Positions 950 to 4,994 of a stretch of DNA of 39,578 nt are shown in pieces. The notes under the pieces are model-generated. The model was not told where the DNA came from, did not search any database, and worked only from the letters and a program-made list of their open reading frames with translations. The stretch lies in the NCBI GenBank assembly GCA_054600435.1, contig BAAIJX010000007.1:682001-721578 (forward strand). Reading direction: 5' to 3'. Source of the stretch: Neophaeotheca triangularis (Eukaryota). Made by a program: the position numbers and the translations under genes. Position 1 is the first letter of the stretch. Every line of letters begins with the position of its first letter.

Positions 950-2778
950 ATGGACACGCTCGACAAAACAGAGTGGGATGTCTTGATTTCCGGCACAGGG
1001 CTGAAACAATCTTTACTGGCGCTGTAGGGACGCCCCCACGACCATACTTCTATGTATGCACCTCAGGCTGACTGACCTCAAGGCCATCATGAAGCGCCCT
1101 TTCCCGCTCGGATAAGAAAATACTCCACGTTGATGCCAATACCTACTACGGTGGCGACGAAGCTGCGCTGAGCTTAAATGAGCTCGAAAATTGGGTCGAA
1201 TGGCATGCTTCGCCTGGTGGGACCAGGTTCAGCCTTGCAGAATGCGTGACCTTCCCCAGTGAGGAGGATGGACCAGGCAAAAAGCTCGCTACCCGAGGCT
1301 ACTCCATCTCGTTGGCTCCACAGATTCTATACACTCGCTCGAACCTGCTGTCTGCCCTGGTGTCGTCTCGTACCCACGGCCAGCTGGAGTTTCAGGCGGT
1401 AGGAAGCTGGTTCCTCCTGAATCAACCCGAGAGCCCACCACCCTCGTCTGGAGCTAGCGTAGTAAGAGTACCAGGCGGACGGGAGGACATATTCAGAGAT
1501 GATCACCTCGATCTGCGTTCGAAGCGCAGGTTGATGAAATTTCTGCAATTCGTCTCGAAGGCTTCGGAGGACCCTTCAGCATGGCAGGCTTCTGCTCAGA
1601 AGTCCTTGCCGACCTTCTTGGAGAAGGACTTTAACCTTGCGCCTGCTTCTCACGCGCCTTTGCTTGCTTTGACGCTGTCACGGGACGCGCCTGAGAAGAC
1701 AACAGTGGAGTACTCGCTGCCCAAGATCGAGAGGCACTTGAGAAGCATTGGTGTCTTCGGCCCAGGCTTTGGTGCAGTTTTACCCAAGTGGGGCGGTCTG
1801 GCCGAAATCGCACAGGTTGCTTGCCGCGCTGGCGCTGTCGGTGGAGGCGTTTATGTCTTGAATAAAGGCATCAAGTCTCGGTCTCTTTCGCCAATTGGCC
1901 AGGGGAAAGGACAAGACATTGAGCTTGCTGATGGTGAACGAGTCACCGCACAGCATGTCATCGCTGGGCTGGATGATTTTTCTGCTCCTGCAGCGGACTC
2001 CAAGGCAAGGGCCACAGCAGACACGTACAAGTCTGTGTCTGTAGTCTCGAGTCCCCTAGCACACATCTTCCCGCCGGTGACAGGAGGTGGCATCACTCCA
2101 GCAGCGGCCATGGTTTTCGCTCCTGCAAGCACCAACTCCGAGCCGCCGGTCTACATTTCAGCACACTCGTCTGACTCGGGCGAATGCCCAACTGGACAAT
2201 GTAAGTTGCACTGCTTCTTCTTTATTTCTCACTCCACCGAAAAGATGATCAACACTTATGAATACTTATCTACATTGGCTGAACTGGCTTAATTGCCTTG
2301 ACGACCACAACTCTGACAACCTGATCCATTTCACAACACAACCACTCTTGTTTAGCACCAGCATGAAACAAAGCAAACTTGCTAACCAGATTGCGAATTA
2401 GGTGTCATGTACGCTTCTCTTTCGCTCAATGCGACCGACGACCCATCCTCAGCTTTTGAGCGCTTGCATGAAGCCGTAGCGCAGCTGCTTTCCGCTCCTT
2501 CGTCGGTAATAGCTACGGAAGAGACTGCCGGAGCATACGCACGTGTTCTTTGGCGCTTGCAATATGTCCAACACACTCCAGTAGCTGCTTTCCCAGATGT
2601 TGACGAGGCGGACAAGGCTCTGCAGTATTTCGCGCCAATGGCTCCCGACTTGGCGCTGGAAGATGATGTCTTGGAGGAAGTCAAGGGTGTTTGGCGTGGG
2701 ATTGTTGGAGACGAGGCAGACGATGAGGAGTTCTTGAAGTTTGAGCCTAGACAGGCTGAAGAGGAGGACGAAATGTAG
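950..2778 (+). CDS. MRS6: Rab escort protein / Rab geranylgeranyltransferase component A (GDI/REP family), ~518 aa; exons 950-1023, 1095-2200, 2402-2778
   Basis: The spliced N-terminus MDTLDKTEWDVLISGTGLKQSLLALALSRSDKKILHVDANTYYGG is the GDI/REP signature. Also VP..REDIF...L..KRRLMKFL and PKWGGLAEIAQVACRAGAVGGGVYVL. Introns GTAGGG..AAG and GTAAGT..GCTAAC..TAG keep the frame (total 1557 nt). Confidence 0.93.
2241..2327 (+). ncRNA. Intronic box C/D snoRNA, probable snR62/U34 homologue (2'-O-methylation guide for LSU rRNA)
   Basis: Lies in the unusually long (201 nt) intron 2 of the REP gene. Box C-like ATGATCA 2245-2251, guide CTTATCTACATTG 2265-2277, D' CTGA 2279-2282, C'-like TTGACGA 2298-2304, box D CTGA 2313-2316 or 2321-2324. 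The guide is the reverse complement of the conserved LSU rRNA stretch CAAUGUAGAUAAG (rRNA sequence from memory). Confidence 0.8.
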
Positions 2779-3275: not shown

Positions 3276-4337
3276 TCACCCCCAACTCTTCCCCAACCTC
3301 AAAACCTTCTCCACCCCCCCAGCAACCCTCCCGACCTCTCCAGCCTCCCTCTTTGCGGCTCCCACCCCGTGCAAAAAAGCACCCTCTAACCCCAGATTCT
3401 CAAAAACCTCCCTCCGCTCTTCCCAGCTGCCGTAGACTTCGCTTTCAACATCTCGCGGCGCGCCGAAGAGGTTGAGGTAGCCGTACGGGTTGGATTTGGA
3501 AAGGGTGTGGGTTTTGTGATCGGTTGAGAGGGGAAAGGAGGGGGGTTCTTGGAGGAGAGGGTTTTGTTTTGACGGGGAGGGTGGCGGGGTGAGGCCGGTT
3601 TGGAGCAGTAGGGTGAGGGTTGTTAGTTGGTGGGTTAGGAGTTTGGGGGCGGAGGTGTTGAGTTTGTTGTTGGTGGGTTTGGAGGTTGTCCAGGCAGAAG
3701 AGGTTGGGGGGTTGTTGGAGGTGTTGGTGTGGGAGGCCGTGGAGTCCGGGCTGTGGTGCCATTGCAGCAGGTTTTGGAATTGGCGGAGCGTTTTCACCCA
3801 CCCGCCTGGCGCGCTTACGACGTAGGATCCGTTGGTTGTGAGGAGCCAGTCGAGCGTTTCGAGGGACGAGAGGCGGATTTCGCTGGAGAGGTGGGAGAGG
3901 CCGGCGCGGGTGTAGAGGAGGAGGGGCTCGATGGAGGCGGAGAGGTCGGTTGGGGGAAGAGCGCGGAGGAGTTTGAGGAGTTGGCTGCGGACGGCGGAGG
4001 AGGAGTCGAGGATTAGGGGTTGGGCCTTGGTGACGATGGTTTCGGCGGGGACGGGGAGGGGAAGAGGGGAGGTGGTGAGGGCGGCGGTGGTCAGGTGGGC
4101 GAGAGCGTCGCGGCGTTGCTGGTCGGCTTTGCTGGAGAGGAGGGAGAGATTGTGTTTGAAGAGCGTGCTTGGGTCGCGGCCGCCTTCGCTCAGGCTTTGT
4201 TGCTTTAAGACGATACTCTTTGCTGTGAAGCTCGTGTCGGTTGCGTTGGTATTGGTTGGGCGCGCTTTGCCGACTTTGAGCTTGGGTTTTTGAAAGTCCT
4301 TTTTCTTTTCATTCTTCTTTTTTGTTGAGTTTGTCAT
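3276..4337 (-). CDS. IPI1: Pre-rRNA-processing protein Ipi1 (Rix1 complex), 353 aa, intronless
   Basis: N-terminal KKKNEKKKDFQKPKLKVGKARPTNTNATDTSFTAKSIVLKQQSL, plus LILDSSSAVRSQLLKLL and the C-terminal EAGEVGR. First ATG at 4335-4337; the ORF-track start at 4394 is a TTG. Confidence 0.93.
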   Translation of the reverse strand: MTNSTKKKNEKKKDFQKPKLKVGKARPTNTNATDTSFTAKSIVLKQQSLSEGGRDPSTLFKHNLSLLSSKADQQRRDALAHLTTAALTTSPLPLPVPAETIVTKAQPLILDSSSAVRSQLLKLLRALPPTDLSASIEPLLLYTRAGLSHLSSEIRLSSLETLDWLLTTNGSYVVSAPGGWVKTLRQFQNLLQWHHSPDSTASHTNTSNNPPTSSAWTTSKPTNNKLNTSAPKLLTHQLTTLTLLLQTGLTPPPSPSKQNPLLQEPPSFPLSTDHKTHTLSKSNPYGYLNLFGAPRDVESEVYGSWEERREVFENLGLEGAFLHGVGAAKREAGEVGRVAGGVEKVLRLGKSWG

Positions 4338-4577: not shown

Positions 4578-4994
4578 ATGCAACAACCGACACCCTCCGA
4601 AGAGACCTCGGCGCTCTTATCCCGCCTAGCCCAACGCCCAGGTGTCCAAAGCACCCTTATCCTCGCCCGCAACACTGGCGCCATTGTGAAGTCTTCCGGC
4701 CTGTTGACAGCTGAAGACGTCGCCGCCACCGACCCCGCCACTACCAACGGGGCATACACCAACGGAGGAACCGCTGACGGCGAAGTACGAAAGAAACAAG
4801 GCACACGCGCTGCTGATGAGGTCGCCCGTGTCGTTTGGGGTTTCGCCCGTGCGGCTGGGGAAATGGTGCAGGAGCTGAATGGGGAGGCGGACGAGGCCAA
4901 GTTGTTGAGAGTCAGGACGAAGAAGAATGAAGTTATGATTGTAGGCGAGGGGCAGTTTCTGCTGGTTGTGGTGCATGATACTCCGCCGGCTTGA
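4578..4994 (+). CDS. Roadblock/LC7 (dynein light chain-like) domain protein, 138 aa
   Basis: LSRLAQRPGVQSTLIL...G.IV.S and KLLRVRTKKNEVMIV....FLLVVVH match the roadblock fold pattern. Single exon. Confidence 0.85.
   Translation: MQQPTPSEETSALLSRLAQRPGVQSTLILARNTGAIVKSSGLLTAEDVAATDPATTNGAYTNGGTADGEVRKKQGTRAADEVARVVWGFARAAGEMVQELNGEADEAKLLRVRTKKNEVMIVGEGQFLLVVVHDTPPA

Follow-up and report, generated by a model that had tools for sequence, protein, structure and literature searches.

The window, meaning the whole stretch of 39,578 nucleotides of Neophaeotheca triangularis contig BAAIJX010000007.1 that was analysed, carries near its start a gene for a Rab escort protein (REP), whose second intron very probably holds a box C/D snoRNA orthologous to Neurospora Nc CD22, yeast snR62 and human U34, as its boxes, guides and relatives indicate. 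The first intron of the same gene bears overlapping branch motifs and an upstream acceptor that appears to be unproductive. The features are as follows, in window coordinates except for the last.

950..2778, plus strand: Rab escort protein (REP/MRS6-type) gene, single copy; exons 950-1023, 1095-2200 and 2402-2778; 518 aa
1024..1094, plus strand: intron 1, productive form; 71 nt, ending in AAG, at the same position in orthologs
1068..1076, plus strand: tandem overlapping branch motifs CTGACTGAC, with candidate branch A at 1071 and 1075
1081..1082, plus strand: putative unproductive AG acceptor of intron 1, upstream of the productive one; 29 of 30 orthologs have such an additional AG
1090..1092, plus strand: TGA read in frame when splicing goes to the upstream acceptor; ends the frame after 27 codons
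2201..2401, plus strand: intron 2, host of the snoRNA; 201 nt, GT..AG; ortholog introns 174-232 nt (n=46 of 61)
2237..2326, plus strand: predicted box C/D snoRNA, ortholog of Nc CD22/snR62/U34; ends placed from the boxes
2242..2248, plus strand: box C AAGATGA; A replaces the usual U at position 2; register taken from orthologs; identical letters in runs X2 and X3
2259..2266, plus strand: candidate element for extra base pairing with 18S 882-889, its complement; shares its final 2 nt with the D' guide
2265..2277, plus strand: D' guide, 13 bp with the genome's own LSU rRNA; target U1874 (yeast Um1888)
2279..2282, plus strand: box D' CTGA; in REP-hosted cores CTGA 46 of 61, CTGC 12, CCGA 2, CTGT 1
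2298..2304, plus strand: box C' TTGACGA
2311..2319, plus strand: D guide, 9 bp with 18S 891-899; D+5 target U894 (Neurospora 18S-Um893, predicted)
2321..2324, plus strand: box D CTGA, 77 nt before the intron end
2381-2386, plus strand: branch motif of intron 2
G000:C81:1281-6902 (L003): complete 18S, 5.8S and LSU rRNA unit of the same genome

Splicing out 1024-1094 and 2201-2401 yields a 518-aa open reading frame, the product of which belongs to the GDI/REP family PF00996 (exon 2 against Pfam GDI, E 4.3e-20). In a comparison with solved structures the nearest was REP-1 (E 4.8e-16), GDI scoring 3.8e-13 or weaker, and the genome contains one strong match to the family together with one distant member on contig C45. 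The earlier note, made from the DNA letters, had given intron 2 as 201 nt, which the GT..AG boundaries bear out, and had predicted a read-through peptide in the unspliced frame, which is present and ends NTYEYLSTLAELA. Its statement that the other introns measure 50-100 nt holds for REP intron 1, where it was checked (71 nt; 49-94 nt in the 28 ortholog ends with a donor found). A peptide-pattern search for REP loci found none.

Downstream of REP lie IPI1 (Ipi1_N) at 3276-4337 on the minus strand and, divergent to it, a Roadblock/LC7 protein at 4578-4994 on the plus strand, which recurs within 3 kb of ortholog REP genes at locus L050 only. The adjacency of IPI1, which the earlier note had remarked on, is real in the window and was found in none of the 27 REP-hosted loci whose downstream DNA reaches 2.5 kb or more (tblastn, E 1e-4), a negative in which sequence divergence of IPI1 could hide some copies; a gene link between IPI1 and the snoRNA was rejected on this count. 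Across 1146-1270, run X2 has two equally deep contigs, the first without differences from the window and the second with 7; they represent two alleles or two strains in the sample. Runs sharing few words with the window were rejected as evidence of habitat.

The boxes of the snoRNA follow from a box-for-box alignment by eye with Nc CD22, which places box C at 2242-2248 and box D at 2321-2324. The D' and C' boxes reported earlier are present, as is D, while the earlier register of box C, ATGATCA at 2245, was rejected, since the columns after GATGA vary among orthologs and the register is wrong. The two candidate D boxes likewise reduce to one, the CTGA at 2313 being rejected because it falls inside the conserved 18S guide. 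AAGATGA has a single mismatch to RUGAUGA, at position 2, and aligns with ATGATGA of the orthologs; the tally among REP-hosted cores is ATGATGA 51, AGGATGA 4, CTGATGA 3, GTGATGA 2 and AAGATGA 1, the last five letters having been fixed by the search pattern. Run X2 covers 1241-2900 with 8 differences, none of them in intron 2, and run X3 covers 2146-2296 with none at all; because both carry identical letters, the odd box C does not stem from an assembly error. The absence of differences in intron 2, against 8 in 1,660 nt elsewhere, is no evidence of constraint, about one being expected. The altered box is probably tolerated, since it belongs to the genome's only copy of this guide. In K-turn geometry a change at position 2 of box C concerns the bulged position and leaves the pairing of GAUGA with box D intact.

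The snoRNA lies 41 nt from the donor and 77 nt from the acceptor, against ortholog medians of 39 and 70. The Rfam check proposed earlier did not recover the expected models: at the gathering score nothing matched the window snoRNA, snR62 and SNORD34 included, and with E allowed up to 10 it was overlapped by a single weak match, to Afu_328 (17.7 bits, E 6.1), again without snR62 or SNORD34. The weak matches to Afu_328, snoZ247 and SNORD46 were taken as chance or shared boxes, and the miss is attributed to low sensitivity of the models for filamentous ascomycetes, because the target and the Neurospora sequence both match; the assignment to the snR62/U34/Nc CD22 family is accordingly founded on that target and that sequence, not on Rfam. 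Fungal intronic box C/D copies often lack a terminal stem. In the terminal-stem test, the consensus fold of 16 sequences reached -0.31 kcal/mol with no covariation, and intramolecular pairing was rejected as the cause of motif conservation for want of a conserved fold. Judged from the known biogenesis of the family, the REP pre-mRNA would be spliced, intron 2 released and trimmed to a snoRNA of about 85-90 nt, which would then be loaded with Snu13, Nop56, Nop58 and fibrillarin to act as a guide for 2'-O-methylation.

The 13 nt at 2265-2277 are the exact complement of the genome's own LSU rRNA, in agreement with the earlier note. Guides of box C/D snoRNAs measure 10-21 nt and stop one base short of D or D', as this one does. 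The genome contains CAATGTAGATAAG at two sites: window 2265-2277, where it stands as the complement, and the LSU rRNA gene on contig C81. Counting by the D'+5 rule, the pairing falls on LSU U1874 in CAA[U]G, numbered from the Rfam start, which agrees with the site named earlier as yeast Um1888; in the available part of PMC5199042, Um1888 is made by snR62. The duplex energy is -17.3 kcal/mol, and, of the 260 CTGA sites in the window, this is the only one that has an rRNA complement of at least 12 nt. The guide-plus-D' pattern at up to 2 mismatches gave one match in the genome, as did the control pattern, and the guide to LSU U1874 is single copy in the assembly. With the pairing observed, and by analogy with snR62 and Nc CD22, the D' guide would direct 2'-O-methylation of LSU U1874.

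Orthologs were sought in metagenomes with a pattern that combined GATGA, the 13-nt guide and, further downstream, CTGA, and which returned at least 118 loci; REP surrounds the snoRNA on the same strand in 74 of these 118 among the matches listed (tblastn). After removal of duplicates, 99 cores including that of the window remained, 61 of them with REP. The donor follows directly after G-Q-x codons in 46 of the 61 distinct REP-hosted cores; it stands 32-77 nt from box C in the 46 introns where it was found, and box D stands 61-89 nt from the intron end (n=60 of 61). Box D', box C' and both 18S elements described below are conserved although they lay outside the search pattern. The sample, inferred from REP identities of about 35-55% at loci that carry no taxon names, would cover several classes of filamentous ascomycetes.

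Among the 38 cores without a REP match, 9 look like true ascomycete copies. L076, negative by tblastn, has a REP exon end visible by HMM, and L086 and L099 are too short; at L022, L033, L041, L118, L069/L108 and L075 no REP was seen, three of them having over 3 kb upstream. The remaining 29 arose by chance or belong to other eukaryotes. REP hosting is therefore widespread, not universal, and copies outside REP such as L069 and L075 suggest that the snoRNA has changed its host gene. Yeast snR62 is a stand-alone gene, and human U34 lies in an intron of a ribosomal-protein gene. Both 18S elements are present outside REP in L069 (2990-3080), L075, L022, L041, L118 and L033. The copies in L069, L075 and L022 are in an intron of an apparently non-coding host, situated upstream of an acetyltransferase-like and an Hsp70-like open reading frame (names by eye). 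Additionally, L046 3001-3077 (also L065, L091, L107 and L109) has a guide of U34 type, differently flanked, within an intron of a gene with a DEAH-helicase-like exon (by eye); copies of this type are probably from a non-fungal eukaryote.

While the core of the earlier reading stands, it missed a guide to 18S, the partner element of that guide and the arrangement of intron 1. The D guide pairs with 18S 891-899, and 2259-2266 is complementary to the stretch immediately 5' of that, 18S 882-889. In 18S, 5.8S and LSU combined, each of the two target words has a single occurrence, and the two lie 10 nt apart; pairing of either element with LSU was rejected, their complements being absent from LSU and 5.8S. 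Duplex energies are -13.9 kcal/mol for the D guide and -8.1 kcal/mol for the extra element, or -3.7 kcal/mol for the 6 nt of the latter outside the D' guide. In orthologs the 18S duplex measures 9-12 bp, the 9 bp of the window being the shortest class, and in 48 of the 49 cores that have the guide, D+5 falls on U894, the guide keeping a constant distance from box D.

The two 18S elements are kept or lost together. Both are present in 47 of the 61 REP-hosted cores and neither in 12; the D guide occurs by itself in 2 and the upstream element by itself in none. On a tree, both motifs are missing at six separate places, one of them near the branch that carries the window. Either trait undergoes 6 changes, the two agree at 41 of 42 tips, and none of 4,000 simulations of independent loss matched this agreement, figures to be read with the tree being rough and with both motifs having been defined once the data had been seen. 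FastTree was used for a quick tree of tblastn pieces, rooted at the midpoint and built from 44 sequences with at least 200 aligned residues, 42 of them distinct. Near the window's REP at about 50% identity, L083, L013, L048, L057, L073, L016 and L028 have lost both 18S elements and kept the LSU guide; the intron-1 arrangement is kept where readable, and the group offers a natural control for methylation of 18S U894. Considering the observed pairing and joint conservation, 18S 882-899 is most likely bound through two separate elements, the 9-bp D guide and the 7-8 bp of 2259-2266, which flank the C/D motif, and such binding would lead to methylation of U894. Yeast 18S has no ribose methylation listed between Am796 and Am974 in the available part of PMC5199042, and the accessible text of Liu 2009 (PMC2780460) contains no report of a test of Um893. 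That extra 18S methylation sites exist in the group follows from the 33 ribose methylations of Chaetomium thermophilum 18S, against 18 in yeast, in the portion of PMC12723226 at hand (Table S3).

In intron 1, 1024-1094 was the only donor and acceptor pair, among those tried, that leaves an open frame. RNA cover consists of two contigs in run X5, none of them over intron 2 or with the productive intron-1 joint; one 151-nt contig (depth 6.9) skips 1024-1082, not 1024-1094. A survey of 38 REP loci with enough upstream DNA gave 30 distinct intron ends, 7 being unparsed and 1 a duplicate, and 29 of the 30 possess two overlapping branch motifs with a near AG. The first branch A stands 9 nt from the near AG in 23 ends, 10 nt in 5 and 11 nt in the window, and the second 5-7 nt from it; the productive acceptor follows 6-18 nt past the near AG and reads AAG in 29 of 30. 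Of 53 intron-2 ends from these genes, 6 have the tandem motif, 10 an additional AG and 2 the ending AAG; Fisher tests on such counts exaggerate significance, since they ignore the relatedness of the sequences. Splicing to the near AG would bring a premature stop in all 29 cases, through an in-frame insertion with its own stop in 18 (about 2.8 expected) and a frameshift in 11. The stop lies directly before the far AG in 13 of the 18 in-frame cases and in none of the 11 frameshift cases, and the frame class changes 5 times on the tree. On these comparisons, a conserved unproductive acceptor in REP intron 1 is probable.

According to the available part of PMC4408805, 96% of Neurospora introns have 9-25 nt between branch and acceptor and 90% end in YAG. 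Because of this spacing, the first branch A can be expected to reach the near AG and the second not. We infer that the choice of branch point switches REP splicing between two forms, one unproductive and one productive: the first branch point would lead to the near acceptor and always to a premature stop, and the second, too close to the near AG, to the weak distal AAG and to REP. Through such a switch the gene could be transcribed at the level required for the snoRNA while REP protein stays low, although the link between the unproductive site and snoRNA output is tentative. Gene prediction for REP can be misled by the upstream AG, and annotation gains from recognising it.

That the motifs in intron 2 are a chance arrangement is a negligible prospect: the boxes are only 4-7 nt long and Rfam is silent at its threshold, but a 13-nt rRNA complement arose in just 6 of 20,000 dinucleotide shuffles of the intron, dozens of divergent REP genes keep the arrangement in this intron, and it matches a cloned Neurospora RNA. 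It is also very improbable that the window copy is decaying or weakly active through the loss of U from box C. AAGATGA is unique among the 61 REP-hosted cores and the 18S duplex is of the shortest class; yet this is the only guide copy in the assembly, the other boxes and both guides are intact, G occupies the same box C position in 4 of 61 orthologs, and the letter is identical in two other runs. The two 18S elements might instead serve as a folding chaperone for the 18S central domain, with U894 unmethylated, as the lack of a methyl at this site in yeast, the short 9-bp duplex and the listing of some yeast guides with absent methylation, such as snR190/Gm2395 (PMC5199042, in part), would allow. 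This is unlikely, since a D guide fixed in its distance from box D, and with it D+5 on U894, is what guided methylation calls for, and C. thermophilum 18S has the larger set of methylations given above.

The balance is even for the proposition that the intron-1 motif and upstream AG control the level of REP protein without regard to the snoRNA, or are tolerated splicing noise. L005, without the tandem arrangement, and, among the unparsed loci, L020, L052 and L062, without the tandem motif by eye, keep the snoRNA, as does L040, likewise unparsed, which has the motif; use of the upstream acceptor was seen in one RNA contig. Noise leaves unexplained the contrast between introns 1 and 2 in tandem motifs (29 of 30 against 6 of 53), the branch-to-AG distance held at 9-11 nt and the excess of stops (18 of 18), whereas nothing in the data argues against control of REP only. 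Returning to the switch coupled to the snoRNA, the fullest version would make REP a two-product unit across filamentous ascomycetes, with the branch switch of intron 1 and a double-guide snoRNA whose 18S contact is held by jointly lost elements and places a methyl absent from yeast; as a whole this is doubtful.

As to novelty, the snoRNA is an ordinary member of a known family, and the family and its predicted 18S target are already in print in the accessible portion of Liu 2009 (PMC2780460). In the literature on fungi no account of a REP-hosted snoRNA or of REP splicing was found, and the supplements of Canzler 2018 and van Nues 2011 may bear on this; the main text of Canzler 2018, as far as available, does not name snR62 or CD22, and 12 of the 15 supplements of PMC3577648 contain no REP names. 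New against the literature found are the 18S partner motif, lost together with the D guide, and the unproductive acceptor of REP intron 1. The joint loss of the two elements is the first comparative support found for the single-sequence 18S prediction of Liu 2009. Intron 1 would supply a fungal housekeeping gene with a small, conserved switch to unproductive splicing and, if tied to the snoRNA, would extend the human principle of host genes and NMD to fungi with a defined sequence mechanism.

The closest known relative is Nc CD22 (EU780946; PMC2780460, in part), a cloned, intronic RNA of 79 nt that directs 26S-Um1866 through D', is listed as the homolog of snR62 and U34, as the earlier identification of an snR62/U34 equivalent would have it, and has 18S-Um893 as a second predicted target through D. 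By eye, the window snoRNA shares its intronic position, its D' guide to 26S-Um1866, its predicted D guide to 18S-Um893, its C' box and its end. The motif before the D' guide is also the same, with no role assigned to it in the available text of that paper, which likewise does not name the host gene of Nc CD22. The window snoRNA differs in its box C AAGAUGA, a canonical D' (CCAA in Neurospora), a longer D'-C' spacer and a shorter 18S duplex. S. cerevisiae snR62 and human U34 (SNORD34) have the same LSU target, yeast Um1888, while no 18S target is listed for them in Table 1 of Liu 2009, as far as that source was available.

Extra base-pairing of the kind described in the accessible part of van Nues 2011 (PMC3116282) raises methylation up to five-fold; that paper also lists snR62, as pairing close to its own target. 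The element in the window resembles it in being short, conserved and away from the D box, in matching rRNA beside the methylation site and in overlapping a guide by 1-2 nt; in contrast, it sits beside one guide (LSU) and would serve the other (18S). For intron 1, the comparison is with human snoRNA host genes, which often yield NMD-sensitive splice forms (Lykke-Andersen 2014, PMC4233243, in part). Those hosts are like REP in being protein-coding, in having an alternative form with a premature stop and in still releasing the snoRNA intron; there decay was seen directly, whereas for REP the evidence is sequence conservation among fungi and one RNA contig. Unlike the human hosts, the proposed REP switch would operate through branch points 4 nt apart.
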